A DNA stretch of 64,000 nt from a virus, in the IMG/VR virus record IMGVR_UViG_3300045988_098422; one strand, given 5' to 3'. Positions 14,058-63,483 of the stretch are shown here, piece after piece (position 1 is the first letter of the stretch; each line of letters begins with the position of its first letter). The notes beneath the pieces were generated by a model. That model was given only the letters and a program-made list of their open reading frames with translations, made no database searches and was not told where the DNA came from. Made by a program: the position numbers and the translations under genes.

Positions 14058-16022
14058 ATGGCAAAGAAAGTTAGTTGTGAAGAATTAAGAAACCAACTGT
14101 TAGCCGCAAATGCGGCTTACAGAAGCGGTGAAAGTATTATGTCCGATGTGGAATACGATGCGTTGGTGGAAAAGCTACGTAAACTAGACCCGTCGGACAT
14201 CTTTTTTAATAAAGGAATAGTTGAAGCAGCCGATGACAGAATGGAAGAGTTGCCTGTTCCTATGTACAGTCTTGAAAAGATTAAGGAAATTAAACCGTTG
14301 CGCAAGTGGTTGAAAAAGATGTTGGATGCTGGAGCTTGCGAAGTTGTGGCGATGCCAAAATTTGACGGAATAAGCCTGTTGACCTACGATATGGATGGCG
14401 ACCAAGCGTGGACACGTGGTGACGGTATTGAGGGGCAACGAAGTGACGCACATTTTACTCGCATGAATAACGGCAAGCCCAAAGGATATTTCTGTAACGT
14501 GCATACATGGGGCGAAGCCATTTGTAAGAAAACCACCTTTGCACACTTAAAGGATGAATTGAATGTAGCGTACAAGAACGCCCGAAACATGGTGGCGGGC
14601 GTGTTTAATTCTTCGGACGGTTTTAAGAACTCTGTAATTGCCTATATTGATTTTGTGCGATATGGTATTGATGAACCAATTGACAAGGATGACCAATTGC
14701 GGGTGTTGCGCAATCGTTACCAGAATGTCACACCATCCAGAACCTACTTAATTGAAGAATTATTGGAGCTTGATGATGCAGACTTGAACGACCTTATTGA
14801 TTTGGAACTGCATGATGAATTTGACGCAGAGTACAAGATAGACGGTATTGTATTGGAAATTAATGAATGGGCGGTGAAACAACAGCTTGGAAGACTACCG
14901 AATGGAAACCCCGCTTATTCGGTTGCATTTAAGCGTGAAGAATGGTGTGACATTTATCAAACTAAAGTGACAGGGATTGAAAAAGGTATTGGCAAAACAG
15001 GTGTTTTGAACCCTGTTATCCTAATTGAACCCGTGGAAATAAATGGTGCGACAGTGAGCCGTGCTACCGCTTATAACGCTGCCTATTTGGTTGAAAACAA
15101 CATTTGTGAGGGGGCTGTGATAGAGGTTACTCGTGGGGGTGATGTAATACCCAAACACTTGAAAACATTGGAATATAACGAAACAATGTTTGAAAAGATG
15201 TGTGATGACCTTGTTATCTGTCCTTCGTGTGGGAAACCGTTAAAATGGAATGAAACAAATGTTGATTTAGTGTGTACGAATGACAAATGTAAAGAAATGG
15301 TAATCAGTGAAATGGTTTACTTTTTCCGTACAATGGGGTGTGAACAGTTTGAAGAACCTACAATACGTCGTTTGTATAATTTTGGCTACCGTAGTGTAGA
15401 AACGATTTTAGAGTCTCATGTAGCCGAGTTCCAAAAGTTGCTCGGCAAGGCTAAGGGTAAAACGGTTTACGACCAAATACAGAAAGTGTTGACTGAAGGC
15501 GTGCCGATGGCACGTTACATGACGGCACTAAATATTTTTGATGGCAAAATTGCCGAAGCCACCTGTCAGAAAATTTTTGATGCAGCGAATCCGGAAATGG
15601 TGGAAAGAGTAAAAACTGTTTCGTACGAAATTGGTAGCATAGCGGAAGCCACCTATTTAGCCAAGTCTTTAGAACAGGTTAACGGGGTAGGCGAGATATT
15701 GGCACGCTCATTCGTTAAGGGGCTGATAAAACTTCAACACATAGGTATATATCCGGGAGTAAATATTACCTATGTTCAGACGCCTGAAACTACACCGCTT
15801 GCAGAAAATGCGATGGTTGTATGTATGACAGGTTTTAGGGATAAGGAAATGGAAGTGCAACTCAATAAACTTGGACACAGGGTTGTTGATGGCGTTACTA
15901 AAGAATGCAATGTGCTCGTAGTTGCTGATTTGAACAGCAATAGCAGCAAGATGAAAAAGGCAAAAGAAAAAGGACTTAGAATTGTAGAACGTATGGAATT
16001 TAGACGTGAATTACTATTATAA
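14058..16022 (+). CDS. ligA: NAD-dependent DNA ligase
   Basis: Adenylation motif AMPKFDGIS (KxDG), Zn finger CPSCGKPLKW..VCTNDKC and a C-terminal BRCT-like VVCMTGF. Start moved to ATG 14058 (MAKKVSCEEL), after the stop of the upstream gene. Confidence 0.9.
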   Translation: MAKKVSCEELRNQLLAANAAYRSGESIMSDVEYDALVEKLRKLDPSDIFFNKGIVEAADDRMEELPVPMYSLEKIKEIKPLRKWLKKMLDAGACEVVAMPKFDGISLLTYDMDGDQAWTRGDGIEGQRSDAHFTRMNNGKPKGYFCNVHTWGEAICKKTTFAHLKDELNVAYKNARNMVAGVFNSSDGFKNSVIAYIDFVRYGIDEPIDKDDQLRVLRNRYQNVTPSRTYLIEELLELDDADLNDLIDLELHDEFDAEYKIDGIVLEINEWAVKQQLGRLPNGNPAYSVAFKREEWCDIYQTKVTGIEKGIGKTGVLNPVILIEPVEINGATVSRATAYNAAYLVENNICEGAVIEVTRGGDVIPKHLKTLEYNETMFEKMCDDLVICPSCGKPLKWNETNVDLVCTNDKCKEMVISEMVYFFRTMGCEQFEEPTIRRLYNFGYRSVETILESHVAEFQKLLGKAKGKTVYDQIQKVLTEGVPMARYMTALNIFDGKIAEATCQKIFDAANPEMVERVKTVSYEIGSIAEATYLAKSLEQVNGVGEILARSFVKGLIKLQHIGIYPGVNITYVQTPETTPLAENAMVVCMTGFRDKEMEVQLNKLGHRVVDGVTKECNVLVVADLNSNSSKMKKAKEKGLRIVERMEFRRELLL

Positions 16023-17670
16023 GGACAATCAATATTGGTACGTAGGATTTCGCTACGACGAACGCTTGGTTAAAGAAATCAAGCGTTTTGTTGGAGCGGG
16101 GTATAATCCCGAGAATAAAGAATGGTACATTCCTTTCACATTACCAACTGTCGCACCGTTGCAAAAATGGTTACACGACAATGGATTTGTGGAAGGGATG
16201 AATTATTACCCCTCTAAACGGGTGCTGGAGTATCAGGAACCCCCTGTAATTATTACCCCTGAAGATGTGGCTATTGCTTGTAAAGAGCTAGGGTTTAAGC
16301 GAATGCCACGTCCATATCAATGTGAGGGTATTGCTTACATGATAAATCATGGCAACTGCATAAACGGGGATGATTGTGGCTTAGGGAAAACAGGGCAAAC
16401 GATTGCGACATTAGAATTAATGGATGCTTTTCCAGCTTTGGTTATCACTCCTGCATCTGTGAAATACAACTGGAAAAAGGAGTGGGAAAAATGGAACCCG
16501 ACCCGCACTGTTGGGGTAGTTGGGCGCAAAAAGAAGTTTGACGAAAATGTATGGCAGAATGACGTGATTATTATTAATTACGATATACTAGGTGAGCGGG
16601 GCTTAGATAAGCCAACAGCGAAGTTCAAAGAGCTCCTAAAGAAGCGATGGGCGTCTTGTGTGATGGATGAAATACATTTCTTGAAGAGCGAAAAGGCGTT
16701 ACGAACCAAAATGGCGAAGAAAATTGTAAAAACAGTTCCGCATGTATGGGGGTTAACAGGCACATTGACACAGAACAAACCCGCAGACTTAATACAGCCG
16801 TTTACGATAATACGTAGGTTTGAGGACATTTTTGGCAGTACGAAAGAATTTAAGTATCGTTATTGCAATGCGAAAATGACAGTATTTGGAATGGATTGTA
16901 GTGGGTTTAGCAATTTGGAAGAGCTACATGAATTGTTGCGAATGGGTGGGTACATCAGGCGTAATAAAAGAGATGTGCTGGATGAATTGCCGCCAATGGT
17001 GGAACAAACTATTGACGTGCCTATTAGCAATACTAGAGAATACCGTAAAGCGGAAAATAACCTGTTGGAATACTTGGAAAAGATAGATATAAACAAGGTG
17101 AACAGCGCAGTCAATGCTCCACACTTGGTAATGATACAAACGTTGAAACAATTAAGTATAGAGGGCAAACTTCCATTTATCACCACTTATATAAAAGAAT
17201 GGTTGGAAGCAAACGAGGGCGAGCAATTGCTTGTCTTTGGCGTGCACCGGATGCCTCTGCAACAGTTAGCCGAGTACTTCAAAGCCCCGCTTATACAAGG
17301 CGGAGTAAGTGCCGACAAGAAGCAACAAATCGTAAATGAATTCAGTAACGGGGGTCATCGCCTATTGTTTGCCAATATTCAGTCAGCCGGAACAGGTACG
17401 GACGGTCTACAAGATAATTGCAGCAACTTAGTATATATAGAGCTACCCGACAAAAGTACCGAGCTAGAGCAAGCAAATGCAAGACTTGAGCGGATGGGGC
17501 AACGGAATAGTATAAATATAACTTACTTGCTGTCACCGGACACGATAGATGCTGATATCAAAGAGATGGTTGCTGATAAAGGGATGATTACAGGCTTGGT
17601 GAACAAAGGTGGCAATGAAAACGAATTATTAACTAAGAAATTCTTATTAAAGAAAAATGGCAAAATTTGA
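16006..17670 (+). CDS. SNF2-family helicase
   Basis: DDCGLGKTGQ (motif I), MDEIHFLKS (DExH), LLFANIQSAGTGTDGLQ, ARLERMGQ. Confidence 0.85.
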   Translation: MNYYYKDNQYWYVGFRYDERLVKEIKRFVGAGYNPENKEWYIPFTLPTVAPLQKWLHDNGFVEGMNYYPSKRVLEYQEPPVIITPEDVAIACKELGFKRMPRPYQCEGIAYMINHGNCINGDDCGLGKTGQTIATLELMDAFPALVITPASVKYNWKKEWEKWNPTRTVGVVGRKKKFDENVWQNDVIIINYDILGERGLDKPTAKFKELLKKRWASCVMDEIHFLKSEKALRTKMAKKIVKTVPHVWGLTGTLTQNKPADLIQPFTIIRRFEDIFGSTKEFKYRYCNAKMTVFGMDCSGFSNLEELHELLRMGGYIRRNKRDVLDELPPMVEQTIDVPISNTREYRKAENNLLEYLEKIDINKVNSAVNAPHLVMIQTLKQLSIEGKLPFITTYIKEWLEANEGEQLLVFGVHRMPLQQLAEYFKAPLIQGGVSADKKQQIVNEFSNGGHRLLFANIQSAGTGTDGLQDNCSNLVYIELPDKSTELEQANARLERMGQRNSINITYLLSPDTIDADIKEMVADKGMITGLVNKGGNENELLTKKFLLKKNGKI

Positions 17671-18521: not shown

Positions 18522-19976
18522 ATGGCTGACTTGGATAAGTATAAACAAGCGATTGTGGATGTTTATGACACCACTAATAAAAATATTTTTGTGAATGCAA
18601 CCGCAGGCAGTGGGAAAACATTTACTTTGTGCACACTTGCTGACCGCACACCACCTATAAAATCGTCCATATTCCTAGCCTTTAACAAGTCAATAGCTCA
18701 AGAATTGGGGGCACGTTTGCCTCGCACAGTTAAAGCGTCAACACTACATTCGTGTTCGTTGTCGGCTTTATTGAAAGCATTTAAAATGGATTTCGCTATA
18801 AGTGAAAACAAATACTTTGGAATGGCTAGGGAGTGTTTGGATTTTAAAGGAATAGCCGCTAAAAGAATTAACGGGTTATGCGGCAGAGCTTGCACTCTGT
18901 ATGACCTTATGCGGTTCAACCTGATTACAGACGATTTTGACAAGGTTACAGAGTTGGGGGAAAGGTACGGTGTTGACGCAGACGAAGAAAGCGTACAGAG
19001 AGCCCTAGAGCTTTATAGGGTCGCAAAACACAAAGCCGATAGATACTTTGAGGGTTCAGTAGGTGGAAAATTACGTATGGATTTTACTGATATGCTATAT
19101 TATGCCGCCAATTACATAGACATGAAAGACTTTAAACAATACAATGTCGTAATGCTGGATGAGTGCCAAGATATCAGCCCGTTACAGTTTGAGGTCGTGA
19201 AGCGGTGCAAGACACCACGAGGCAGACTGATAGCCGTAGGTGATGAAAAACAAAGTATTTACAGTTTCATGGGAAGTAATTTGGACAGTTTGCACGCTAT
19301 AAAGAATTCCCCGAATACGATTGAATTACCTTTGTCTATGACATACCGTTGTGCGGTGAATATTGTAGACGAAGCCCGTAAAGTGTTTCCGGACGGTATT
19401 GAGGCAGCTCCGGGAGCTGTATTGGGGAGTGTTGATTGTGGTAGTTTTAGAGATGCCAAAGATGGCGACTTTATATTGTGCCGAAACAATGCACCCCTGA
19501 TGGAAACGTTTATAGAATTATTGAAACTAGGCAAACGGTGCGCCATTATGGGTAAAGATTACGGTGATGAGTTGGTGTACCTAATAGATAGCATTAAAGA
19601 TATTTGGGGGCTGGAAGCTAAGTTAGAAAAGCTAAGTGAAAGCCTTGCGAAGAAAGGTGTTAAAATGCCGACCAAAGTGCCTGCATACGCCCAATTGGAA
19701 GAAAAAGTACACGTCTTGCTCACCCTGTATGAATATTTTGGCGACTTAGAGGTGGTGCGTAATCGCATTTATGATATATTCACAGATACGCAGAGCAAGG
19801 GGGTGACGTTGAGTACGATACATAAATCTAAAGGTTTAGAGGCTGATAACGTATATTTCTTGCAACCGGATTTATTACCGAGCAAGTATGCGGTTACGGA
19901 GTTAGCCTTGTATGCGGAAAAATGTTTAAAATTTGTGGCAATAACGAGGAGTAGAAAGAATTTAATATATTGTTAA
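18522..19976 (+). CDS. UvrD/PcrA-like SF1 DNA helicase
   Basis: Walker A ATAGSGKTFTL, MLDECQD, LSTIHKSKGLEADNVY, VAITRSRKNL. Confidence 0.8.
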   Translation: MADLDKYKQAIVDVYDTTNKNIFVNATAGSGKTFTLCTLADRTPPIKSSIFLAFNKSIAQELGARLPRTVKASTLHSCSLSALLKAFKMDFAISENKYFGMARECLDFKGIAAKRINGLCGRACTLYDLMRFNLITDDFDKVTELGERYGVDADEESVQRALELYRVAKHKADRYFEGSVGGKLRMDFTDMLYYAANYIDMKDFKQYNVVMLDECQDISPLQFEVVKRCKTPRGRLIAVGDEKQSIYSFMGSNLDSLHAIKNSPNTIELPLSMTYRCAVNIVDEARKVFPDGIEAAPGAVLGSVDCGSFRDAKDGDFILCRNNAPLMETFIELLKLGKRCAIMGKDYGDELVYLIDSIKDIWGLEAKLEKLSESLAKKGVKMPTKVPAYAQLEEKVHVLLTLYEYFGDLEVVRNRIYDIFTDTQSKGVTLSTIHKSKGLEADNVYFLQPDLLPSKYAVTELALYAEKCLKFVAITRSRKNLIYC

Positions 19977-23568: not shown

Positions 23569-25179
23569 ATGAACGTACAGATTTTATTTAATGATGACGC
23601 CCGAAAGAAAATGTTTGAGGGGGTTGAAGAGTTGGCAAATGCAGTGTCGTCCACGCTCGGACCAAAAGGGCACTCGGTTATCCTGGATAAAGGCTATGGA
23701 ATACCCCACATCACCAAAGACGGTGTGACAGTTGCCCGTGCCTACGATACGGATGATACGATGAAGCGTATGGGTGCGACGCTTGTGAAGACCGTTGCTG
23801 CAAAAACATGTGATGAGGCGGGGGATGGCACTACGACAGCCACCATTTTAACCCGTGCATTAATGAAAGAGGGGATGGCAACATTAGCCCGTGTGTCTAA
23901 TCCACAGCGTTTTAAAGAGGGTATTGAAGCCGCTAAATGCGAAGCCGTGAAGTTTATGCAACAGATGAGCAAAGAAATTGGTGAAAACGATTTTGAGCGT
24001 ATCAGACAGATTGCGACAATAAGTGCCAACGGTGATGAGGAAATTGGGGCTATTATCACTGAAGCTATTGGCAAAGTAGGCAACGACGGAGTAATTACTG
24101 TTGAAGAAAGTAGCAAGAGCGAAACCACCGTAGAGGTGACGACAGGCTTCCAATGGGAAAAGGGGCTGTTGAACCCGTATTTTGTGACTGACCCCGAACG
24201 AATAGAATGTGTACTGAACAAACCATACATTTTGCTCTTTGGGCAAAACATAAACTACCCCGATGAAATATTGGGTGTATGTCGCAAGGTGTACGATAGT
24301 CACCGTTCTCTTTTGGTTGTTGCTCCTAATGCGTCTAACGACGTAGTGAATTTCTTGGTGCAGAATGTTAAACAAGCCAATGGACTGAAAGCCTGTTTCG
24401 TTAAAGCTCCGGGATATGGGCAGATGCAAAAGGATTTGATTATGGATTTGGGCGTTAAGATTGGCGCACACGTAATCGGAGAAGAGTATGGCAATCGTGT
24501 AGAAGAAATTGGCGTGGATTGGCTTGGTGAGTGTGAGCGTGTTGTGGTAAATAGCACTCGTACTATACTCACAGGGGGCGCAGGTTCGCCAGATGAGGTA
24601 AATACACAGGTAGCCGCAATTAAGCACCAATTAGACGACAGTACGAACGCTTTTGACATTGAAAAGTACCGTGAACGTATTGCACGCCTGACAGGTGGTG
24701 CGGCTGTTATTTATGTAGGCGCAGACAGTGACGTAGAAATGAAGGAACGGAAAGACCGTGTTGATGATGCTATTGCCGCAACTCGTGCAGCATTGGAAGA
24801 GGGGTACGTTCCGGGAGGCGGCACAATTCAGCTTCGTGCCTCTGAACTGCTTGTGCACCAACTTGCAGACTTGAATGAAAAACCAGCCGATTTCAGAGCT
24901 GGATGGTGTGTAGTGGCTGAGGCTTTGCGTTACCCGTTCCGTCAATTATGCGAAAATGCTAGTGCGAACGCAGTACGTATTCAAGTGGATATGGAACTTC
25001 AACCGTGGATGCACGGTTATGACCCTATAAAGGAAGAAGTTTGTGATATGTATGATGCAGGAATTATTGACCCGACAAAGGTGGCACGCTTGACGCTTGA
25101 GAACGCTACGTCGGTTGCAATTCAATTCCTCAATACTTCATGTGCAATGGCAGCTAGTAATGATGAGAAAGGGAGTTAA
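23569..25179 (+). CDS. groEL: GroEL-type chaperonin
   Basis: 536 aa; LGPKGHSVIL, ITKDGVTVA, AGDGTTTATIL, KAPGYG, GGGTIQL. Confidence 0.95.
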   Translation: MNVQILFNDDARKKMFEGVEELANAVSSTLGPKGHSVILDKGYGIPHITKDGVTVARAYDTDDTMKRMGATLVKTVAAKTCDEAGDGTTTATILTRALMKEGMATLARVSNPQRFKEGIEAAKCEAVKFMQQMSKEIGENDFERIRQIATISANGDEEIGAIITEAIGKVGNDGVITVEESSKSETTVEVTTGFQWEKGLLNPYFVTDPERIECVLNKPYILLFGQNINYPDEILGVCRKVYDSHRSLLVVAPNASNDVVNFLVQNVKQANGLKACFVKAPGYGQMQKDLIMDLGVKIGAHVIGEEYGNRVEEIGVDWLGECERVVVNSTRTILTGGAGSPDEVNTQVAAIKHQLDDSTNAFDIEKYRERIARLTGGAAVIYVGADSDVEMKERKDRVDDAIAATRAALEEGYVPGGGTIQLRASELLVHQLADLNEKPADFRAGWCVVAEALRYPFRQLCENASANAVRIQVDMELQPWMHGYDPIKEEVCDMYDAGIIDPTKVARLTLENATSVAIQFLNTSCAMAASNDEKGS

Positions 25180-27328: not shown

Positions 27329-27946
27329 ATGAAGAAAGATTTCCTTAATGTTTCTCCTGATACAGGGGGGGGTAGCGGAACGGTAACTGTCACCGCTGAC
27401 CCTAATTTAAACTTTGCTAGTCGTACGACAACTTTGAATTTTAATGCTGATGGAGAAGTATTAAAAGAGGTTGAAGCGTTACAGTTTGGGAATACCATTA
27501 TTCCGCAATTTTATTTAAGTCCAACCGTTTCAAGTAACAATGACTTATGGGCGTTGAAAATTACAACAACCTTAGAACTAGAAGAATTTGCGGCTGGAGC
27601 TTATAATTTCTTGGTGGATTGTACCGCTAATAAGAAGATAGCTACGGAAGGGACAGCTCCTAATGTAACTATTTGTATTTCGGTGATTAATAGTGTTATC
27701 ATACCGAGTGGTGGAAGTAACATAAATAACCGAGAATACGATATGTATTACAGTAAAGACAACGGTACTAAGACTAAGATGACAGTAAGTAAAGACCAAT
27801 ACAGTCAGTTTATTTCTTTCCGTTTTATGGAGAGGGCTACATTTGAAGAACTAACTGTTTCTAATTATCGCTTTTGGCTTCGCAATATAAACGATGCAAG
27901 TGAAATAGAACTTCCAGTTAGGTTTAGATTAGCTTATCATTATTAA
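27329..27946 (+). CDS. poly-G paralog family member A (G8, in frame, ON); BACON/Ig-like N-module (inference)
   Basis: MKKDFLNVSPDTGGGSGTVTVTADPNLNFASRTTTLNFNADGEVLKEVEALQ shared with 4 paralogs; 205 aa. Confidence 0.75.
   Translation: MKKDFLNVSPDTGGGSGTVTVTADPNLNFASRTTTLNFNADGEVLKEVEALQFGNTIIPQFYLSPTVSSNNDLWALKITTTLELEEFAAGAYNFLVDCTANKKIATEGTAPNVTICISVINSVIIPSGGSNINNREYDMYYSKDNGTKTKMTVSKDQYSQFISFRFMERATFEELTVSNYRFWLRNINDASEIELPVRFRLAYHY
27365..27372 (+). repeat. G8 homopolymer encoding Gly-Gly-Gly
   Basis: ACA GGG GGG GGT counted directly. Confidence 0.95.
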
Positions 27947-27978: not shown

Positions 27979-28458
27979 TTACCGCATTTCGTTATAACTA
28001 CGGTTCATCCACGCTTCTTTTTCCATGCTTTCAATCATGTCCTCAAGGAAATTTAAGGTTCCTTGGTCAGCGGGTGGCACTTGGTCATGAATTTCACGGA
28101 TGCGTCTAATTACCGTGTCCCAGTCGGCAGAAATAATTTTCCACATTTCCATGTCCGTCGGGAGTGGCTGAGACATTTCAAACTCCTGAATGTGGTTTGC
28201 CTGTAACATAGCTTCCATACTACCGAGCGGTCTGCCACCTAAAGCCCGCACACGTTCAGCAACGTCATCAACACGTTCAATTTCGGCTTCATAAAGTTTC
28301 AGCATAGCTTCGTGATAGCTGCCAAAAGAAGAACCAATAACGTTCCAATGGAACTGCCATGTTTTTAGCAACAGGGTAAAGTGGTCGGCTAATAAGCCGT
28401 TCAACAGGACAAGACTTTTAGCTATGTCCTCTGATGTTAATCCAATGTTTACTTTCAT
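27979..28458 (-). CDS. dps: Dps (DNA-binding ferritin-like protein)
   Basis: LLADHFTLLLKTWQFHWNVIGSSFGSYHEAMLKLYEAEIERVDDVAERVRALGG. Start set at MKVNIG (28458; alternative start 28467) because the tracked upstream Mets run into the promoter box. Confidence 0.85.
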   Translation of the reverse strand: MKVNIGLTSEDIAKSLVLLNGLLADHFTLLLKTWQFHWNVIGSSFGSYHEAMLKLYEAEIERVDDVAERVRALGGRPLGSMEAMLQANHIQEFEMSQPLPTDMEMWKIISADWDTVIRRIREIHDQVPPADQGTLNFLEDMIESMEKEAWMNRSYNEMR

Positions 28459-28493
28459 AATGTACATTTTAAAAAGTTGATGTATATACGCCA

Positions 28494-28501
28494 CAAAGGT
28501 A
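28494..28501 (-). promoter_or_regulatory. -7 box TACCTTTG for dps (minus strand)
   Basis: Minus-strand GACTACCTTTGT, same 12-mer as the + strand promoters at 13710 and 28570. Confidence 0.55.
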
Positions 28502-28549
28502 GTCAAAAGAAAATTATTAGAAAAATCTTAGAAAAAGTCCGGTGAAGTC

Positions 28550-47986: not shown

Positions 47987-48316
47987 ATGAACGATGAACT
48001 ATTAAAGATGCTACCTATGTCAGAAATTGATGCTGACATTCACAGTTCGGCTCCGGGTTATTGGCAACAAACTAAGCGTCCAAGCATTTGGAGTGCGTGG
48101 AAACAAGGGGCACAATGGGAACGCAACAGAGCTAAGAAAGAGGGTGGCTGGATATCAGTAAAGGAAAGCCCGCCTACGACTGACGGTTTGTATTTTACAA
48201 AGGGTGGATTCAGAAAGTACAATATTATGTACTTTCGTGATGGCAAGTTTTTCACACACCGTCACAGTGACACCTACGATAGTGGAATTGAATTTTATAA
48301 ACCCGTAGAAAATTAA
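47987..48316 (+). CDS. hypothetical protein
   Basis: Tracked ORF, 109 aa. Confidence 0.5.
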   Translation: MNDELLKMLPMSEIDADIHSSAPGYWQQTKRPSIWSAWKQGAQWERNRAKKEGGWISVKESPPTTDGLYFTKGGFRKYNIMYFRDGKFFTHRHSDTYDSGIEFYKPVEN

Positions 48317-48321
48317 TAATT

Positions 48322-48711
48322 ATGGACAAGAAACAAAGAAAAGCAAATCAGAAACTGCAACAGGCGCAGAACTTTGCGGAAAATTTACGAGCGAATCAGA
48401 ATTTACCTTTAGAGGAAAAGGCACGTAGAACTAAAGTTATCAGCCCCGAAATAGGCAAACACTTGAAATTCGCTATTTTAAAAGAAAATATTTACTTTGA
48501 TTCCTATTGGGCTCTTCCGACAAAGCGTAGAAACCTACCGTCTTTAAGCGGAAATATCGCCCCATTTATGCGTAAAGGGACTCTTGTGAGTTATGAGCAT
48601 ATCATCAATGATGAATGTGCTTTTACGGACAGCAACCACAACATTATCATCGGGAAATGTTGGCAGGCTAAAACCGTAATATCCGAAACCACTTTAACAC
48701 CACAGCCATGA
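48322..48711 (+). CDS. hypothetical protein
   Basis: Tracked ORF, 129 aa. Confidence 0.5.
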   Translation: MDKKQRKANQKLQQAQNFAENLRANQNLPLEEKARRTKVISPEIGKHLKFAILKENIYFDSYWALPTKRRNLPSLSGNIAPFMRKGTLVSYEHIINDECAFTDSNHNIIIGKCWQAKTVISETTLTPQP

Positions 48712-48981
48712 CAAGAACAGAAAGAAATTTACACATGGGAAAATTTGCTACCGCACATCCCGAAAAGTCGCTAACTTATAGTGAAGCGTATGCGCTGGCT
48801 CAAAAAAGGCGCAAAGATAACTCACCGTTATATGGCAGCTAACGAATGGATGACCGTATTACCGAATGGGCGCATTTGTTTTGAGGACGGATGTGAGCAA
48901 ACTATTGTTGAATTTTGGGCTGCACGTCGCAACCAAACAGGATGGACAGACGGTTGGAGCGTATTTAACGAAGCCAAATAG
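48708..48981 (+). CDS. DUF2829-like protein, frame broken at A6 tract (48802-48807)
   Basis: Frame 0 from ATG 48708 (or 48735) gives ...LTYSEAYALAQK and stops at 48845. Frame +1 (tracked ORF 48781..48981) gives KGAKITHRYMAANEWMTVLPNGRICFEDG... With A5 the two join as SEAYALAQKGAKITHR, resembling the F.EAl.alk.GkkvrR signature. Confidence 0.45.
48802..48807 (+). repeat. A6 tract at frame junction
   Basis: CTC/CAA AAA AGG counted directly. Confidence 0.9.
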
Positions 48982-49039
48982 TGAGGAAAGTGCACGCTTC
49001 ACTATAAGGGTAGATTATTAATAACTAAATTTTAGTAAA

Positions 49040-49661
49040 ATGAAGAAAGATTTTATTACAGTTCTTCCCGAATCGGGGGGGGGGTGACGCACAGGTTCAA
49101 GTAACCGCTGACGTCAATCCAAGTTTCGCAAGTCGTGAAACTACTATCAATTTTAACGCCAACGGGCAAGTTCTTAAAAGTATTCGGGCTGTTCAGGACG
49201 GTATGCCGTTTGTTTGTCAATTAGGTTTTGATGCACCTGCTAATTTAAGTCAAGGGTTCTTTATTCAATATTTTGGGCTTACTCGTACAGGTGGAACTAA
49301 TGGCTGTCCGCTAATAAATGGAATTATAGCCAGAATTATAAAGTTAGACAACGACTTTAAATTAATTCCTATGTTTGGTTGTTTGCGTTCATTTTGGAAA
49401 GAAACCGATGATAAAGAATTAATTGCCGAGCTTAGATGGACGGACAATACAGGGTATGAAGTTGGGAAAACGTACCTAAATTTTACTTTTGACAACGAAG
49501 ACGGTGAGGAGTGGGCTAATTATACCGCTGAATTTAGCGGGTCGGATTTAGTTGTGCCGAGTGATGCTTACAGATTAAGAGTGAGTGTTGGCTTTGGACG
49601 TGGTGATGTTGGTATCGAAGATAATAATTACATTTGGCAGTATTATTTATCTTTCCAATAA
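49040..49661 (+). CDS. poly-G paralog family member B (G10, frame-shifted OFF as written)
   Basis: ATG 49040 gives MKKDFITVLPESGGG then TGA. With G9 it reads SGGGDAQVQVTADVNPSFASRETTINFNANGQVLKSIRAVQDGMPFVCQ..., in frame with tracked ORF 49203..49661. Confidence 0.7.
49075..49084 (+). repeat. G10 homopolymer
   Basis: aatcGGGGGG GGGGtgac counted directly. Confidence 0.95.
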
Positions 49662-49671
49662 AATCAGATTT

Positions 49672-49691
49672 TCCCGGAAGAAATTCCGGGA
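49672..49691 (+). terminator. terminator hairpin of cassette
   Basis: TCCCGGAA-GAAA-TTCCGGGA then TTTTCTTTG. Confidence 0.7.
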
Positions 49692-49696
49692 TTTTC

Positions 49697-49727
49697 TTTG
49701 ATATGTCAATTAGTCTGCCTACATTTG
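49697..49727 (+). promoter_or_regulatory. Bacteroidota-type promoter in conserved cassette
   Basis: TTTG 49697-700, 19-nt spacer, TACATTTG 49720-27, leader CAGTGTCAATCAATAG. Confidence 0.7.
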
Positions 49728-49768
49728 CAGTGTCAATCAATAGTTATTCACTTTAAAACTCAAATGTT

Positions 49769-50041
49769 ATGGCAAACTTACAAGAATTTCATTTTAGTAC
49801 AGGCGTTAAGCCTTACAGTCACATTCCAGCCGTTCCAGTAGGAAAACATGAATTTGTTGACGGCAACGGTGTAAAGATAATTCGCTTCTATTGTGAAGAT
49901 GTGCCACAGGGCGCACAGTTTCAATTCGCTTCACCTTATCCCAACTGCAAAGAAGCCGCTTATGAACATTGGATTGTTCGTGAAATTGTTGATGGTGGTT
50001 TAGCCTCTAAATATGCTTACTTTTATTTGCCAACGTTATGA
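49769..50041 (+). CDS. hypothetical protein
   Basis: Tracked ORF, 90 aa. Confidence 0.55.
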   Translation: MANLQEFHFSTGVKPYSHIPAVPVGKHEFVDGNGVKIIRFYCEDVPQGAQFQFASPYPNCKEAAYEHWIVREIVDGGLASKYAYFYLPTL

Positions 50042-50223
50042 AGAATACTGTAAAAATTCGCATTACAAAAATGGAATATAAACGTAACTGTGAAAACTTT
50101 TGTAATACGGTTTTAATGTTACGTAAAGCCCGCAATATAGGTGATGAAGAAACGGTTAATCATTACGTATTAAGCCGATTAAACAGCCAGAAAGGAGACA
50201 AATTTGATTTTGAAATTCTTTAA
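50038..50223 (+). CDS. hypothetical protein
   Basis: Tracked ORF, 61 aa, ATGA overlap. Confidence 0.45.
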   Translation: MKNTVKIRITKMEYKRNCENFCNTVLMLRKARNIGDEETVNHYVLSRLNSQKGDKFDFEIL

Positions 50224-50235
50224 TACTAAATAATC

Positions 50236-50484
50236 ATGAAAGCCATTGTAGAAAACCCGCTTTTGGATATGCGTGTCTACGCAGCTAGTTTATTCGTTGA
50301 AATTCTTAACGAAATAACTGCCTGTAAAAACGAAGAAGAATTACGTCGCTGTGTAAGGTTATTAGAAAAACGCCATAAATACGATAAACCAGAATTATCA
50401 TGGTATTTTAAATGGGGCTTCGGTCATAATCATTTTTGGGTGAGTGACCTTAACGGGGTTCGTCTGATATTTGTGGAGTTTTAA
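50236..50484 (+). CDS. hypothetical protein
   Basis: Tracked ORF, 82 aa. Confidence 0.5.
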   Translation: MKAIVENPLLDMRVYAASLFVEILNEITACKNEEELRRCVRLLEKRHKYDKPELSWYFKWGFGHNHFWVSDLNGVRLIFVEF

Positions 50485-50494
50485 GAAACTCCAC
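50473..50494 (+). terminator. hairpin overlapping stop codon
   Basis: GTGGAGTT-TTAAGA-AACTCCAC. Confidence 0.45.
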
Positions 50495-50500
50495 TACTTA

Positions 50501-50511
50501 TGCGTATATTT
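50501..50511 (+). promoter_or_regulatory. TGCGTATATTT motif, copy 1 (candidate second promoter class)
   Basis: Exact 11-mer shared with 53644 and 56825; 35 nt upstream of ATG 50546; no -33 TTG. Confidence 0.4.
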
Positions 50512-50545
50512 CACAAAATTTATTAACTTCCTAAAATAAAGAAAG

Positions 50546-51322
50546 ATGGATTTAAAAGACAAAAGAATTGTATTTGTAGGGCTGGACGATGTGCTTATTA
50601 AAACACATTCTAACAAAGAAAAGCCCGTGGGCGTATGGGACATGGAATTCAACCTGAATGTGTTGGAAAAGCTGAAACAACTCAACCCGATTGCTATCTT
50701 TGTTGTAAGCAACCAACCGGACATTCCTGCCAAATTGCACCCGTCACTGTTCCAAGCGAAGTTCGTGTATGTTATTGCGGCACTTCAGGAATACATTGGT
50801 ATGACGGTTTTCCCCGCTGGACAGTATGCGCCTGAAATGCCAGAGGGCGAAGCTCCTATCGCTATGCCGAATTCGACTATGTTGTTGACAATGTTTAATG
50901 AGTTCCTAGCAACGTCTCGTATGGAGCTTAATAGAGAGGATTGCGTAGTGATTGGTACGGGTGAAGAGTATGCGGGTGCGGCTCAAGCCTTTGGATGTGA
51001 TTATTTGGACGTGGCACATTTGTTGGAAGAAAATTTGGGCGAGCCTCTATTCAAGCTCGTATGGAATATTCCGTCCTACGATTTGGTGATTGACCCCGAA
51101 AATCAAGCTATTATGGAAAATCTACCGTGGGAATTTGCGGTTCACCGTGCGGAACAGATTAACAAGCTGCCATTTAAACAAGCAGATGTCCTTGTCGTGG
51201 CTCAAAAATGGGCAACTCCAAAACCTATGGAACATAAAGAATTTAAAGTAGATGCTCGCAAGTTGTCAAAAGGGGCTCAACGAAAAGTTGCGATGCAAAT
51301 TAAGAAAGGAGGGAAGAAGTAA
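50546..51322 (+). CDS. hypothetical protein; N-terminal HAD-IIIA-like region with non-canonical motif I (tentative)
   Basis: RIVFVGLDDVLIKT ... IFVVSNQPDI resembles PNKP/GmhB phosphatase motifs I and II, but the nucleophile Asp position is Gly. Confidence 0.4.
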   Translation: MDLKDKRIVFVGLDDVLIKTHSNKEKPVGVWDMEFNLNVLEKLKQLNPIAIFVVSNQPDIPAKLHPSLFQAKFVYVIAALQEYIGMTVFPAGQYAPEMPEGEAPIAMPNSTMLLTMFNEFLATSRMELNREDCVVIGTGEEYAGAAQAFGCDYLDVAHLLEENLGEPLFKLVWNIPSYDLVIDPENQAIMENLPWEFAVHRAEQINKLPFKQADVLVVAQKWATPKPMEHKEFKVDARKLSKGAQRKVAMQIKKGGKK

Positions 51323-53708: not shown

Positions 53709-54596
53709 ATGTACAAAGACTTTGTAAATGTAACCCCTGAAAGCGGTGGCGCAGGCACTACTCCGATAGCTGTTGCCGCTGATGAAAACGAAGGAGCTGC
53801 ACGCAGCACTTCACTCAATATTGCGGGTGGCGGTGTGACACGAACTGTCTCTATCACTCAAAAGAAAATGCTTGTGGAAAACCAAATTGAAGTTAAATAT
53901 TGGTTAGACGCAGCAACTAGCGGGACAGGCAAGTCAATTTATTTGGAAGCCTATGCAAACAATGATGTAGCAAGCAACCTGAAAATTAACTTTAGCATTG
54001 ACCAACAGGGACCGACAGGCGAATGGGAAACCAACACTCCAGTAGAAATACTGATAAATACTGGAGATAACGCTTCCACAACTTATGAAATTCCATATTA
54101 TGATTACGGATGGCGTTTTCATGAAGAAGTGGCTACTATTACCCCTTCTCAAGATGAAGATTTTATTTATGATTTTGCAGGATTCATTGAAGAATTTAGG
54201 GCTCCAGAAATTGGTATCTGGAAAATAAACACGCTTACAGGAGAACCAAATGGAGGAGAAGCAACAAACCCATCAGCCGTTTATCAAGTTTCTTCAAACG
54301 CTGACTTCAAAAAAGTTTTGACTTTTGCTTCTTTGGGTGGAGTTACTTTTTATGATGAAAGCGGTTTAGCAAGTATGACACTTACTTGGTTACAAATCCA
54401 ATATTCAGATGAAATTGGGCAAAAGCCATACGCTATTTCTGTTCGGGGTGGCTTTACAGGAGTATCAGAATTAAACACTATGCTTTGGAGTGGTAAATTC
54501 CAAAATGGAGTTATTAATGCAACTTATCAAGCCCAATTTAAAATAGATGGCGTTATTCGCAATTTTAAATGGCGAATTCAAGGAGCACACATTTAA
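53709..54596 (+). CDS. poly-G paralog family member E (no tract; GG encoded GGT GGC; constitutively in frame)
   Basis: MYKDFVNVTPESGGAGTTPIAVAADENEGAARSTSLNIAGGG; 295 aa, longer divergent C-domain. Confidence 0.75.
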   Translation: MYKDFVNVTPESGGAGTTPIAVAADENEGAARSTSLNIAGGGVTRTVSITQKKMLVENQIEVKYWLDAATSGTGKSIYLEAYANNDVASNLKINFSIDQQGPTGEWETNTPVEILINTGDNASTTYEIPYYDYGWRFHEEVATITPSQDEDFIYDFAGFIEEFRAPEIGIWKINTLTGEPNGGEATNPSAVYQVSSNADFKKVLTFASLGGVTFYDESGLASMTLTWLQIQYSDEIGQKPYAISVRGGFTGVSELNTMLWSGKFQNGVINATYQAQFKIDGVIRNFKWRIQGAHI

Positions 54597-54652: not shown

Positions 54653-55304
54653 ATGAAGAAAGATTTTGTAACAATTACCCCAGATACGGGGGGGGGGCTC
54701 GGCTACTCCACAAGTAACCGCTGAACCCAATGTGACGGCACAGTCACGCTCAACAACTCTCAATTTTGATGCCAACGGAAAGCAGCTTAAATCCGTTCAA
54801 GTCAATCAACTCGGTATTCCATGGTTCATAAATGTGTGTACCGCCATTCAGGGCGAAATAACTGAAGCCAATACAAACGTCGGACATTCTTTAAAAGAAG
54901 TGGATTTTTCGCCTAGTGGCGATGGTGGTAGTATGCCAAATATTCCATTCTTTCAGTATGATTTTGAAATAAATAATTTCAATTACACCAGTAAGACGGT
55001 TTGGTATTTAGCTCTGGAAGCTAATATATTAGGTACTTTGATTGATACCAATACGGAATATTTAATTCTGGAATTTGATTTAGGCAAAGGAGATGGGTGG
55101 GAACGAATGGAATTTATGTGGGAAAATACCTTTGAGGGCTATCAATATTGGCGCAATACGACACCCAACGTTTACCCCAATGAATATCCGACAGTTAAAA
55201 CTGTCCAAATGCGAGTTGGAATTGGTGATAATACTGACCCAGAGCCTATTCATACTTATCTTGCTCAATTTACAGTAAATATCGTATTAAGCCCCCGACC
55301 CTAG
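54653..55304 (+). CDS. poly-G paralog family member C (G10, frame-shifted OFF as written)
   Basis: ATG 54653 gives MKKDFVTITPDTGGGLGYSTSNR then stop. With G9 it reads TGGGSATPQVTAEPNVTAQSRSTTLNFDANGKQLK, in frame with tracked ORF 54732..55304. Confidence 0.7.
54688..54697 (+). repeat. G10 homopolymer
   Basis: atacGGG GGGGGGGctc counted directly. Confidence 0.95.
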
Positions 55305-56971: not shown

Positions 56972-57594
56972 ATGAAGAAAGATTTTATTACTGTAACCCC
57001 TGAATCGGGGGGGGGGCAGGCACAACAGTAAACGTTGTTGCTGACCCTAATTTTGGCTCTATGCCTAGAAAAACAACCTTAAATTTTGCGGCAAATGGGC
57101 AACCGCTTAACAAAGGAATAGAAGTTTCTCAAATAGGAAGTTTCTTTCAATTATTTGCTTTTCCCAACTTTACTTTAGCAACAACCTCACCCAATCAACA
57201 GTACATGTTGAAAATGTTTTTGGATAGTTTGGACTATGATGAGGTTGAATTTCAAGGACAAACTTTTAATGTTCCTTATTATGGGGTACAAACTACCAAA
57301 GCCACGGGAGTAACTCTGTATGATGCCTTCTTAGACTTCCATTTATTATTTTCCACAGAAGCAATTAATAGCTTACAAATCACTGAATTTGTGGCTGATG
57401 TTGAATCAAATAATGGAGGGGTAAGCACTGTGTCTTTAACGCCCGCCCAAGTAGAAACAAATTTGGGTGTGTCAGAATTTACACTAAGCACTAAATCACT
57501 TAGTGGATTACAAACTTTGCATCAGGTCACTTTTTATGCCATTATAAACAATGCGAAAGTGCAAATTTGCAGAGTAGGAAATGCCGTTAGATAA
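56972..57594 (+). CDS. poly-G paralog family member D (G10, frame-shifted OFF as written)
   Basis: ATG 56972 gives MKKDFITVTPESGGGQAQQ then stop. With G11 (or G8) it reads SGG(G)AGTTVNVVADPNFGSMPRKTTLNFAANGQPLNK, in frame with tracked ORF 57061..57594. Confidence 0.7.
57007..57016 (+). repeat. G10 homopolymer
   Basis: aatcGGGG GGGGGGcagg counted directly. Confidence 0.95.
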
Positions 57595-59949: not shown

Positions 59950-61047
59950 ATGGAAAAGAAAATTTCTTTGGCTACATTTGAACAAGTAGCCGCAGATAAT
60001 GGTTATGAAGTGTTTACCGCTGAAGAGGTAGCCGCATATTACAAAGATGGCTTGCAGAAAAGCATGAAGAATGAATTAACTTCTGATGAAAAGGAGTTGT
60101 TTGCGGCTGACATTGCTTTCTTACAAAAAGCCGTTTGTGTTGATGAGAATGGTAAAGAGGTGACACGTTATTTCCGTCCGGAACAGGTTAACTGGGAAAA
60201 GACAGAAGATGGCGTGTTGTTGAAAGGTATTGCCGGAGTTTTTGCTGATACTCCTACTAACAGAAAATTGAATCGTGTTGGAGAGGCTTTTGTGCCTTCA
60301 CCGGATTTTATGAAGTCCTTGGAAAGCGAGGAAATTAACGAAGACATTATTAAAGCCATGAGAACAGGGCGTTACGCTGATACTCCTGAAAATCGTCGCT
60401 TACACCGTGTCGGTCAGCCCTATGCAAAGCGTGAGGGTAAAGGTACAGAAGAAACCGACAAAGAAAAGAAGCGTATTGGTGACACAAAAGCCGAAATTGA
60501 GAAGCTGGATGCCAAGTATGGTAAAGTATATACCGCTCTTGGAAAACGCAAACAAGAGGCTTTAGAGAGGGGCGATAAGGCAGAGGCAAAACGTATGTCG
60601 GAAGCCATTACCAGAATGGAAAATGAACACGATGCCGAAGTAGCTAAACTTAAAGAAAAAGAGGGTGGTGAAAAAGGTGACGAAAAACTACACGTAAAAG
60701 CCGACGAACGTAAAGGTGGCGAAAAGGGTGATAAAAAGCTACATGAGGAAGCTGAAAAGAAAAAGAAAGAGCCCAATCCGGGTTCCAAGAAAAATCCTTT
60801 GAAGATAGACAGCATTAAGGATATTCACAAAGATGCAGCCTATCAGAAAATTACCATTGACGGTCACGAAGCTACTATTGTGAACCGTGGCACATACGAC
60901 GAAGATACTCACAAGCCGATATATTATGTTGAAGCAGGCAGTCAGACGCACGCATATACAGGCTTGGACATGCTGAAAGAAAAGATTGAGGAATTTGTGC
61001 GTGTTGCCAATGGTGGAAAGGCAGACAGTGACGATAAAAAAAAGTGA
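59950..61047 (+). CDS. hypothetical Lys/Glu-rich protein with two ADTPxNRxLxRVG motifs (scaffold/internal-protein-like)
   Basis: FADTPTNRKLNRVGEAF and YADTPENRRLHRVGQPY; tandem KGGEKGD-KLH repeat; ends in GAT AAA AAA AAG TGA. Confidence 0.6.
   Translation: MEKKISLATFEQVAADNGYEVFTAEEVAAYYKDGLQKSMKNELTSDEKELFAADIAFLQKAVCVDENGKEVTRYFRPEQVNWEKTEDGVLLKGIAGVFADTPTNRKLNRVGEAFVPSPDFMKSLESEEINEDIIKAMRTGRYADTPENRRLHRVGQPYAKREGKGTEETDKEKKRIGDTKAEIEKLDAKYGKVYTALGKRKQEALERGDKAEAKRMSEAITRMENEHDAEVAKLKEKEGGEKGDEKLHVKADERKGGEKGDKKLHEEAEKKKKEPNPGSKKNPLKIDSIKDIHKDAAYQKITIDGHEATIVNRGTYDEDTHKPIYYVEAGSQTHAYTGLDMLKEKIEEFVRVANGGKADSDDKKK
61036..61043 (+). repeat. A8 homopolymer / A AAA AAG heptamer at gene end
   Basis: gatAAAAAAAAgtga counted directly. 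Confidence 0.95.
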
Positions 61048-61321
61048 AGTAACACCCTCTGACGCATCCAAATCTTTCTTTGAAAGCAAATTTAAGAATT
61101 TGAAATGGAAGGATGGAGGTGATAAAGATTACCCAAGTGTTGTCGCTCACAAGAAATTTAGAGGCGTGCCTATTGATATAGAAATTGATGAAGATGGGCA
61201 GGGAGAAATTATTATTGGTGATGCCGACGAAGGAATTGAGTTTGGGGCACTTACATCTGAAAAAGCCGCAAAGGAACTTTGGGATACTATTTTAGAGGAA
61301 CTTGAATATTACGAGGACTAA
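61043..61321 (+). CDS. 92-codon ORF in the +1 frame with no start codon of its own after the A8 tract: candidate recoded C-terminal extension
   Basis: SEVTPSDASKSFFESKFKNLKWKDGG...ILEELEYYED contains no Met. The only ATGs of tracked ORF 60986..61321 lie 38-62 nt inside the upstream gene and give a non-protein-like peptide. Confidence 0.45.
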   Translation, partial: SEVTPSDASKSFFESKFKNLKWKDGGDKDYPSVVAHKKFRGVPIDIEIDEDGQGEIIIGDADEGIEFGALTSEKAAKELWDTILEELEYYED

Positions 61322-61656: not shown

Positions 61657-63483
61657 ATGGACGATATAGAAAAATCACGCCACGGTCGGTATGAAGACAA
61701 CGCTAAGAACAGGCGGCTTCATCGTGTAGGTCAAGAATATGGCAGTAAGAAGCAGGAAGACGAAACTGTTGACCCTAGCAAATTAACTCTTGACCAATTA
61801 CATAAGGAAATCAATGAGTTGGGGCACATATTAGGCGGTAGGATTAAGGATGGTAGACGTACAGAAGATGTAGAAAAGCGTATTTCTGATTTGCTTAAAT
61901 ATGCTCCCGATAAGGTATTGGAAAGCACCTTAGAAGCTCTTAGGACAAATGTCAAGCCAAACCCGACCGCAAAAATTGCCGCCAAACTGACGGAAATGGA
62001 AATTAACCGTCGCAAAACAGAGGGTTCTGCAAAACAGACTGAAAAGAAAGAGGAAACTCCTAAGGAAGAGCCAAAAGCTCAATCTGAAGAGCCTGAAACA
62101 TATACCCGTGTGAAGTTTGATGATGTGCCTCAAAGCGGAAAGGTAAATCTTAAGAAATACCTTTCTAATAAAATTAGGGCGGAGGTTGACAAGGCTTGGA
62201 AAGACAAGGCTAAAATCGGTGACAAAACTTTGCAGGACATGGAAAAGGGTATGGTCGCAGAGTTTAACAAAAACTTTGACAATCTAAGCAAGTCAAAACG
62301 AGCCGAAGCCCTGTACAGTATTATGACGGTTAAGGCAGAAATAGCCCGTCGGGGTAGAGGGGCTAAAAACGAGGAAAAACAAGGTGAGCAGCTTGCATCT
62401 AAACAGGAAACTCCAACGGAAAAGCCTAAAGTAGACTATAAGAAACCTGAATCCTTTAATGAGCTTTACACCAGAGTTCGAAACACATGGTCGGATATTA
62501 TGGAAACAAAGCCCAAGGAAGTAGATTTTACTAAGCCTAAAGAAGTGGCTGAAATGGCTTCTGCATTTTTTCCTGGAACAACTATATCTAAAGTAGACGG
62601 TGAAGAAGAATATATGGTTCAATATCCTGGGGATGCAAGTAGGTTTATGCGTATTGATAAATATACGAGTTCTCCTAAAGCCTTGAATGATAAAATAAGG
62701 ATGTTTTTATCTATGGATATGGACATGCGCACTAGACAGAATTTTTCAAATGATGAAAAAGAAAAATTTGATAGGATATTTGCGCTAGTTGCGGAAAGTG
62801 TGGCTGATAGGGCACTTGTTAAAGATATGAACGTTGCCCGCACAAAAGCATTTGAAGAACAGGTTGATGAAAACAATAGGAATATTTCAAGGAATGTTAG
62901 GGTAAGAAAGGGTAAACCGATGAGCTTTGAGGAAGCTAATCAAGGTCGTGGAAATCCTAAATATCGTTCTGATGAACTTTTTCGTATAAACTGTCAAACA
63001 TGTGTGGTAATTCATGAATTGCGATTAAGAGGATTTGATTTGGGTGCGAAGCCAAAAACAAGTTCTGCACAATTTGCAATGGCAAAAGATTCCTCCTATG
63101 CTTGGATAGACCCGTTGACAGGGCAGCAACCCGAAGCTGTGAGAATAACTTGTGCCCCAGAGAATAAAGTAATTAAGGTCAGAAAAAGCCAGAAATCAAA
63201 GTCGGATTTACGTAAAAATATTTTAGAAGCTACAAAAGAGGTAGGACGTTATAATTTTTCTTATGGATGGGAAAACGGTAAGGATAGTTCTGGACATATC
63301 ATAACCGCTGAAAGGCACGCTGATGGGAATTTGACATTTTACGACCCTCAAAATGGGAAGAGCGTGCCTATGGTAGAATTATTGGATGAGGTTAGTCCTA
63401 AATATTTGTGCAGGATAATTCGAGTAGATAATTTGCTTATTAAACCGGATATTGTTAAAGATTACGCAATGCAATATGAGTAA
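61657..63483 (+). CDS. large multidomain protein; N-terminal NRRLHRVG motif, C-terminal predicted papain-fold Cys-His-Asp domain
   Basis: GRYEDNAKNRRLHRVGQEYG at the N-terminus; C-terminus RINCQTCVVIHELRLRG ... SSGHIITAERHADGNLTFYDPQNG. Confidence 0.55.
   Translation: MDDIEKSRHGRYEDNAKNRRLHRVGQEYGSKKQEDETVDPSKLTLDQLHKEINELGHILGGRIKDGRRTEDVEKRISDLLKYAPDKVLESTLEALRTNVKPNPTAKIAAKLTEMEINRRKTEGSAKQTEKKEETPKEEPKAQSEEPETYTRVKFDDVPQSGKVNLKKYLSNKIRAEVDKAWKDKAKIGDKTLQDMEKGMVAEFNKNFDNLSKSKRAEALYSIMTVKAEIARRGRGAKNEEKQGEQLASKQETPTEKPKVDYKKPESFNELYTRVRNTWSDIMETKPKEVDFTKPKEVAEMASAFFPGTTISKVDGEEEYMVQYPGDASRFMRIDKYTSSPKALNDKIRMFLSMDMDMRTRQNFSNDEKEKFDRIFALVAESVADRALVKDMNVARTKAFEEQVDENNRNISRNVRVRKGKPMSFEEANQGRGNPKYRSDELFRINCQTCVVIHELRLRGFDLGAKPKTSSAQFAMAKDSSYAWIDPLTGQQPEAVRITCAPENKVIKVRKSQKSKSDLRKNILEATKEVGRYNFSYGWENGKDSSGHIITAERHADGNLTFYDPQNGKSVPMVELLDEVSPKYLCRIIRVDNLLIKPDIVKDYAMQYE

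Follow-up and report, generated by a model that had tools for sequence, protein, structure and literature searches.

A poly-G tract at a fixed codon position in a family of BACON-domain genes of a gut phage, a probable slipped-strand contingency locus

The 64,000-nucleotide (nt) stretch of viral DNA analysed here (hereafter the window; one strand of IMG/VR record IMGVR_UViG_3300045988_098422) carries a gene, designated paralog B, whose open reading frame (ORF) is interrupted near its 5′ end by a homopolymer of ten guanines (G10). As the initial annotation of the sequence had described, the start codon is ATG 49040 on the plus strand, the homopolymer occupies 49075-49084, and a TGA at 49085-49087 lies directly 3′ of it and closes the B ORF after 15 codons. 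The elements of the locus, with lengths of products in amino acids (aa), are as follows.

49022-49030, plus strand: leader motif TAACTAAAT, approximately 10-18 nt 5′ of the B start codon.
49040-49087, plus strand: B product in the proposed OFF state, out of frame as assembled, opening at the ATG and running for 15 codons (MKKDFITVLPESGGG), then TGA.
49075-49084, plus strand: G10 tract, the proposed slipped-strand switch, coding for the glycine run of the BACON module.
49086-49661, plus strand: B frame 3′ of the tract, residues 16-206 and the stop codon.
49203-49661, plus strand: program-called ORF of 152 aa, beginning at the internal Met55 of restored B.
49672-49701, plus strand: terminator-like hairpin with a T-run, 11 nt past the B stop codon.

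Removal of one G (G9) restored a B ORF of 206 aa ending at 49661 and addition of two (G12) restored one of 207 aa, as had been predicted, while G11 left the frame closed; the in-frame tract lengths of B are G6, G9 and G12. The junction peptide of the restored protein across the tract is ESGGGDAQVQVTADVNPSFASR. The part of the restored protein encoded 3′ of the tract comprises the remainder of the BACON module, to approximately residue 54, and then a beta-sandwich C-terminal domain (C-domain) of approximately 150 aa. The program-called ORF at 49203-49661 does open at an internal methionine, and no ATG, GTG or TTG occurs in its frame 5′ of Met55. The conserved N-terminal module (N-module) that the initial annotation had placed upstream of this ORF and in another frame was found there, and matched the Pfam BACON domain. 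The residue-for-residue alignment with a second gene, paralog A, that had been reported for restored B held over the N-module (residues 1-61, gapless, 56% identity, E = 6e-20) and did not extend to the C-domains, which are unrelated. A designed internal start at Met55 was rejected, as this methionine is not conserved in the family and paralogs D and E have no equivalent. Given the terminator-like hairpin at its 3′ end, B looks like a self-contained transcription unit. Exact look-up returned no record of the 152-aa ORF, and neither megablast with 48000-51000 nor tblastn with restored B found a match among 50,697 deposited phages.

The kinship of A and B noted in the initial annotation was real, and the pair proved to be part of a larger family of five genes with four tracts in the window.

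27329-27946, plus strand: paralog A, 205 aa, in frame, with ACA followed by G8 at 27365-27372.
49075-49084 (tract), plus strand: paralog B, G10, out of frame, needing -1 or +2.
53709-54596, plus strand: paralog C, 295 aa, intact, with the same N-module, its glycine run spelled GGTGGCGCAGGC and without a tract.
54653-55304, plus strand: paralog D, G10 at 54688-54697, out of frame, needing -1 or +2.
56972-57594, plus strand: paralog E, G10 at 57007-57016, out of frame, needing +1 or -2.

The correction needed by E is thus opposite to that of B and D, a point not remarked before. G-runs of six or more number only four in the window, C-runs of that length are absent, and all four G-runs lie at codons 12-15 of the paralogous genes, approximately 35 nt past an ATG, in the context MKKDF..(V/I).P(D/E)(S/T)GGG. 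Ten overlapping matches to G8 were observed, in the four tracts, versus 0.8 in dinucleotide-preserving shuffles. In C, which was always intact, the glycine stretch is written in mixed codons (GGT GGC GCA GGC). GGG accounts for only 22% of glycine codons in the long ORFs of the window, and the tri-glycine runs elsewhere (three other genes have them, and C has another one further along) are likewise of mixed codons; the homopolymer is therefore kept at the nucleotide level beyond what the protein sequence needs. The tract was present across paralogs with unrelated C-domains and across lineages of less than 70% nucleotide identity.

The family genes also have 5′ sequences in common. A leader of the form TAA(C/T)T(A/T)AA(A/T) precedes the ATG by 10-20 nt in A, B, C and E (27311, 49022, 53689 and 56953), and D has a related leader, ACTTAAT, at 54636. 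The motif has nine matches in the window, five of them away from the family, and three of these five are just 5′ of a gene start (5507, 44590 and 45297). A clear GC-rich hairpin was found 5′ of A, D and E.

Tract length was compared at 73 related loci, collected by pattern and protein searches from IMG/VR, JGI, ENA and Logan assemblies. The comparison is one of consensus assemblies from independent gut metagenomes, and the genomes compared for tract variation were 94-99% identical. Across related genomes the tract of this gene ranged from 5 to 11 G's, leaving the frame open in some and closed in others. The variability of the tract that the initial annotation had implied was apparent in the B orthologs, which have the same flanks and carried G7, G8, G9, G10 or interrupted forms.

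G7: 4 copies, out of frame.
G8: 2 copies, out of frame.
G9: 3 copies (L003, L067 and L073), in frame.
G10: 11 copies, the window included, out of frame.
GGGGAGGGG: 1 copy, in frame.
G7AGT: L048 and L049, in frame.
G9 with ATT in place of ATG at 437-439: L070 (Logan ERR12023801), start codon lost, not counted.

The predicted allele TC-G9-TGAC, encoding 206 aa, was present in L067 and L073, and the G10+TGAC allele of the window was found in identical form in four further independent SRA runs. The ATT of L070 would be a different route to silencing the same gene or lowering its expression. Orthologs of A carried AC followed by G7, G8, G9 or G10 and were in or out of frame according to length; orthologs of D were in frame with G6 and G9 and out of frame with G7, G8 and G10. 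The pattern built on the flanks of E had no matches in IMG/VR, and full-length relatives of E were found by protein search, among them P0056, in which the tract has shrunk to G5.

Tract correction failed to restore three or four copies, including L033, L054 and L058 (at 6517), and these were set aside. Among the 72 resolved copies, which are not phylogenetically independent, those with an unbroken tract of at least seven G's were in frame in 12 cases and out of frame in 39, and those with a short or interrupted tract were in frame in 21 cases and out of frame in none (Fisher p = 4.6e-10 versus unbroken). The in-frame share of the unbroken tracts, 23.5%, was no different from one third. Eight related loci (L010, L019, L021, L024, L026, L028, L031 and L040) had a second tract of G7-G10 approximately 87 nt past the first, at the position of NFSA-GGG. 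Several of these two-tract copies needed both tracts to be corrected, and the paralogs of the window have no second tract. In such relatives two independent switches would then gate a single gene.

The frames recovered by repair of the tract alone bear the marks of coding sequence. Pairwise ratios of non-synonymous to synonymous substitution rates (dN/dS) were 0.08-0.31 for A, B and D, pairs in which both members are out of frame included. For the window the ratio was 0.13 versus L057 and 0.10 versus L059, and for D of the window versus L042 it was 0.08. In the 39 codons from the tract to Met55, a stretch to which no start codon gives access when a genome is out of frame, 17 of 23 variable sites fell at third positions of the restored frame; between the window and L059, both out of frame, this stretch differed by 7 synonymous and 0 non-synonymous changes. 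The resolved out-of-frame copies carried no second disabling mutation. By these substitution patterns, the repaired frames are under purifying selection, even between two out-of-frame genomes.

All five N-modules matched Pfam BACON (PF13004) with E values of 1e-5 to 1e-7. Scores for A (32.0 bits), B (25.4), D (27.4) and E (26.4) were at or above the gathering score of 25, and that of C (24.6) was just under it. The matches span profile positions 9 or 10 to 50-61 of 61, the first strand being missing. An AlphaFold (AF2) model of B built on 14 homologs gave a beta-sandwich C-domain, with a mean predicted local distance difference test score (pLDDT) of 69. Its best structural neighbour in BFVD was a 'BACON domain-containing protein' of an uncultured myovirus (E = 1e-7, template modelling score (TM) 0.44). 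The C-domain of B (49221-49562) gave no nucleotide alignment with many relatives despite flanks 94-97% identical, and the B proteins of those relatives showed an identity of only 47-52%, so that the B locus houses at least two C-domain cassettes as alleles. P0057 is a chimera of the N-module of D and the C-domain of E, which suggests shuffling of C-domains via the conserved 5′ module.

Near its C-terminus restored B contains Arg-Gly-Asp (window 49599-49607, residues 187-189) inside G-R-G-D-(V/I/T)-G. The GRGD motif was kept in 11 of 13 aligned B-family homologs, including nine at 41-50% identity, and was missing from the three most divergent homologs (33% identity). RGD is the classical integrin-binding motif; its occurrence in the BACON protein B of a gut phage is notable, but may be coincidence.

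No signal peptide or lipobox was found in the family proteins. We infer that they are probably virion-surface accessory proteins, either adhesins or auxiliary receptor-binding proteins, because BACON is otherwise an extracellular, glycan-associated module, because proteins without export signals could reach the outside only on particles, because the C-domains are exchangeable cassettes, and because BACON/Ig-like proteins of gut phages mediate adhesion (PMC13370021).

At this locus, then, tract length sets the reading frame, alleles differ while their flanks are conserved, the ORF is under selection and the tract is kept at the nucleotide level, which are four of the features by which contingency loci are recognized. 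The G10 at 49075-49084 is probably a slipped-strand simple-sequence contingency locus of the BACON family. Slipped-strand mispairing during replication of the phage DNA would add a G to the run or remove one, and with the tract at codons 12-15 each change of length would flip B on or off. The on state (G6, G9 or G12) would yield a protein of the 206-aa class and the off state a peptide of 14-23 aa, and the present assembly would have caught B in the off state. The same device would operate at the same codon position in A, D and E. The glycine loop presumably tolerates two to four glycines, G6, G9 and G12 all being in frame, and so would offer a cheap site for a switch. Four switchable genes would give 16 combinations, such that a population could display different sets of proteins and, by switching, hedge its bets against variable host surfaces or mucosal conditions. 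Switching may be reversible and occur at a high rate within one population. The fuller proposition, that a prevalent human-gut Bacteroidota phage lineage of approximately 108 kb carries at least four to five small virion-surface BACON proteins with interchangeable C-domains, each independently switched by poly-G in the glycine loop of its BACON module and mostly off in vivo, is put forward tentatively and is open to more doubt than confidence.

Several observations weigh against a freely reversible switch in surface proteins. The off state is dominant: among B copies with an unbroken tract and an intact ATG, 17 of 20 were out of frame, and in the B protein cluster 12 of the 15 listed members were truncated (152 or 162 aa) and 3 were full-length (206 aa), the truncated entries being gene-caller output from out-of-frame genomes (e.g., P0021). 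A correction of -1 was needed by 29 copies and one of +1 by 11, again with no phylogenetic independence among the copies; the excess of tracts with one G too many may stem from selection for the off state, from a mutational tendency to insertion or from recoding. G7 appears to be inherited within a clade (L036, L043 and L058), so switching of short tracts may be slow, and the differences in tract length were those between assemblies. With regard to the proteins, pLDDT in the AF2 model was below 50 for residues 1-31 and 55-61 for residues 31-60, a PHROGs search returned no family for B, A, C or E, and a PDB sequence profile search gave no match. Foldseek against PDB returned nothing at E ≤1e-3 and only generic beta-sandwiches or CBM21-like folds at TM ≤0.34. 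The proposed virion location and function are drawn from the type of domain, the missing signal peptide and analogy.

Three other explanations were considered. If the G10 were a sequencing or assembly error, the true tract would be G9, B would be an intact 206-aa gene and G10 a consensus miscall. Homopolymers of approximately ten are indeed error-prone, the three out-of-frame tracts of the window are all exactly G10, tract lengths tend to be alike within a contig (7,7 or 10,10,10), and a private A6 in the window (A5 in relatives) splits a 90-aa gene at 48802. A miscall is nevertheless highly improbable, since the 39 out-of-frame copies have lengths of 7 to 10 and come from many studies and assemblers (MEGAHIT, SPAdes and Logan), since the four additional runs gave G10+TGAC independently, and since all 21 short or interrupted tracts were in frame. 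A single directional bias does not fit the need of E for +1 and of B and D for -1, contigs with G7 showed no excess of homopolymer indels elsewhere, and the other 1-nt indels checked, in genomes 96-99% identical, were mostly intergenic, many recurring at the same sites in several relatives. Decay, in which the BACON paralogs would be dispensable duplicates and the tract merely the site of the first inactivating mutation, would account for most copies being out of frame, for the additional loss of the ATG in the B allele of L070, and for the position of the family genes among small accessory genes. It is the least probable of the three: full length was regained by tract correction alone in 49 of 51 disrupted copies examined (L033, L054 and L058 (6517), where a second lesion is possible, being excluded), dN/dS was low and third-position variation dominant even between out-of-frame pairs, and the tract is conserved among paralogs whose C-domains are unrelated and among lineages below 70% nucleotide identity.

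Recoding, the third explanation, would make DNA with one extra G the normal genotype, the full-length protein being produced by RNA-polymerase slippage or by a +1 ribosomal shift. In B such a shift could occur at GGG-UGA-C in the manner of prfB, and G10 would then mean low expression, not off. This would fit the excess of copies with one G too many over those with one too few (29 to 11), the UGA-C directly after the run in B, the hairpin just downstream of that run (z = -2.7), and the dominance of out-of-frame genotypes whose ORFs are yet intact. Against this, the bases after the tract vary (CGAC, CTCG, TACG, TGAC and TAGC), D, E and A have no downstream structure (z -1.2 to 0), and the shift would have to go the other way in E and in copies where a whole codon precedes the tract. 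In-frame alleles, with G9 or with an interrupted tract, occur often, contrary to expectation for a fixed recoding signal, and slippage during transcription, though efficient on A/T runs, is far less so on G runs. Recoding is for these reasons considered unlikely. Two narrower candidates were rejected outright: programmed ribosomal frameshifting as a general mechanism, for want of a conserved context or structure and with opposite shift directions among the paralogs, and a noisy long-read assembly, as homopolymer indels were not in excess elsewhere.

Tract differences among genomes 96-99% identical amounted to 1-3 nt, and the window showed two other frame-relevant 1-nt differences, both in A-runs (48802 and 61036). 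At 48802-48807 the window has A6 and L036 has A5, every other aligned related locus being one base shorter here; the region is one 90-aa gene in relatives and, in the window, two overlapping ORFs of 44 aa (48708-48842) and 66 aa (48781-48981). This A6 reflects either a frameshift private to the window or an error in the consensus. At 61036-61043 an A8 ends a 365-aa ORF (59950-61047, terminating in DDKKK and a stop codon), which is followed in another frame by a 103-aa ORF (61010-61321); L042 has A7 and a single fused ORF of 456 aa, and L043 has A8 as in the window. The sequence A AAA AAG TGA at this point resembles a slippery site, and the A8, which lies where the probable structural module begins, may be another homopolymer of variable length or else a site of recoding.

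The poly-G contingency locus proposed above belongs to a phage whose other genes allow it to be placed. The product of 898-4365 has PHP, Pol III alpha and HHH domains and is a DnaE-family polymerase; its best cultured matches, at 39% identity, are in Tenacibaculum phage Larrie and Cellulophaga phages phiST, phi13:1 and phi19:2. The window also codes for an NAD ligase and a class II ribonucleotide reductase, and for the following.

7352-8386: metallophosphoesterase (of an SbcCD-like nuclease pair).
9337-11337: SbcC-like protein.
12559-13665: Zeta-toxin/AAA-domain protein.
16006-17670: SNF2 helicase.
18522-19976: UvrD-like helicase.
23569-25179: GroEL-like chaperonin, judged from its translation alone.
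27979-28506, minus strand: ferritin-like Dps, directly after paralog A.
61657-63483: 608-aa protein with a C-terminal papain-fold glutamine-deamidase toxin domain (PF15644).

The PF15644 protein presumably resembles toxins carried as fused cargo by the head-morphogenesis (MuF-like) proteins of phages, and its gene probably marks the start of the virion module. The 'Gratiaviridae', a proposed family, combine DnaE, SF1/SF2 helicases, SbcCD and Dps or other oxidative-stress genes with a contractile tail, and have predicted Bacteroides or Parabacteroides hosts (Benler et al. 2021, PMC8008677). By gene content the phage fits a 'Gratiaviridae'-like assignment, a likeness judged on the genes of the window, the terminase and structural module lying outside it. 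Bacteroides or Parabacteroides is by this analogy probably the host. Related contigs of 106-113 kb came from human gut metagenomes, and the phage is taken to be of approximately 108 kb. The poly-G context pattern had no matches in 185,579 species-representative bacterial and archaeal genomes, and thus gave no sign of a prophage or host copy.

The mechanism itself is already known from bacteria and from Fletchervirus and is not a new principle. In Fletchervirus, a group of Campylobacter phages, hypermutable poly-G tracts switch genes and have a shown role in host interaction (Sorensen 2021, as related in PMC11959909 and PMC12823448), and a 2025 review terms phase variation in Campylobacter phages 'an exceptional case' (PMC11959909). 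As far as those two accounts describe it, the Fletchervirus system resembles the present one in having G homopolymers in phage coding regions, several per genome, whose changes in length turn genes on or off and create phenotypic diversity. On the same accounts it differs in that switching and phenotype were established there by experiment and are deduced here; in that the present phage infects, by its assignment, gut Bacteroidota, has a DnaE polymerase and carries the tracts in small BACON-domain proteins; and in that the tract here recurs at one conserved domain position in a set of paralogs, some copies having a further tract approximately 87 nt downstream. Bacterial contingency loci, such as the poly-G loci of Campylobacter jejuni, Haemophilus and Neisseria (PMC11868660), likewise have a homopolymer near the 5′ end of an ORF under selection, vary in length among close relatives, occur as multiple independent loci per genome and are locked on when the tract is interrupted; the present loci are, by contrast, virus-encoded. 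Repeats of at least 6 nt in T-even and other cultured phages undergo reversible frameshifts that have been viewed as bet-hedging (Gomez, Barrick and Waters 2025, 10.1101/2025.10.21.683753). The two systems share the use of phage simple-sequence repeats as frameshifting contingency loci. The T-even genomes contain more than 100 mutable repeats each, scattered and under-represented in infection proteins, whereas here a very few long tracts (G7-G11) are restricted to a single gene family and a constant codon position, a pattern that points far more strongly to selection for the tract itself.

BACON proteins have been described in gut phages of Bacteroidota (de Jonge 2019, PMC6949934) and in Flandersviridae (PMC8008677), and adhesion of gut-phage BACON/Ig-like proteins to epithelium and mucus has been shown (PMC13370021). 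The present family shares with them the BACON domain, Bacteroidota phages as carriers, a modular build, and a role in adhesion to mucus, epithelium or bacterial glycans that has been proposed or demonstrated for such proteins; it differs in having a single, slightly N-truncated module at the extreme N-terminus, joined to an unrelated C-domain. Homopolymers, slippage, frameshifts and phase variation were searched for as terms in de Jonge 2019 and are absent from it, PMC13370021 contains no mention of homopolymers and a frameshift only in a K1F display construct, and full-text literature searches returned no paper that ties homopolymer switching to BACON proteins of phages or to gut phages of Bacteroidota. 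Diversity-generating retroelements (Mtd of Bordetella BPP-1, and gut phages) and invertible tail fibres (Mu Gin, P1 Cin) also produce programmed, localised variation of host-interaction proteins, but by reverse-transcriptase mutagenesis or site-specific inversion instead of the replication slippage proposed here. No reverse transcriptase or invertase was seen beside the family genes, in an inspection that included no search aimed at either. What appears to distinguish the present system, on the sequences compared, is the fixed domain position of the tract, its replication across a paralog family and the predominance of the off state in natural samples.

For annotation, the genes are called as truncated 152- or 162-aa ORFs in most assemblies, so domain surveys undercount BACON proteins. 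For phage biology, the locus would bring widespread, uncultured phages of gut Bacteroidota, as well as BACON/Ig-like proteins, within the known range of phase variation by repeat slippage, and offers a directly testable model of surface diversification in a phage population that needs neither recombination nor retroelements. If the proposed switching of surface proteins is true, the family would be the first simple-sequence phase-variable repertoire of adhesins or receptor-binding proteins in phages of gut commensals, and would parallel, in a virus, the phase-variable capsules of Bacteroides and tune adherence to mucus or epithelium.

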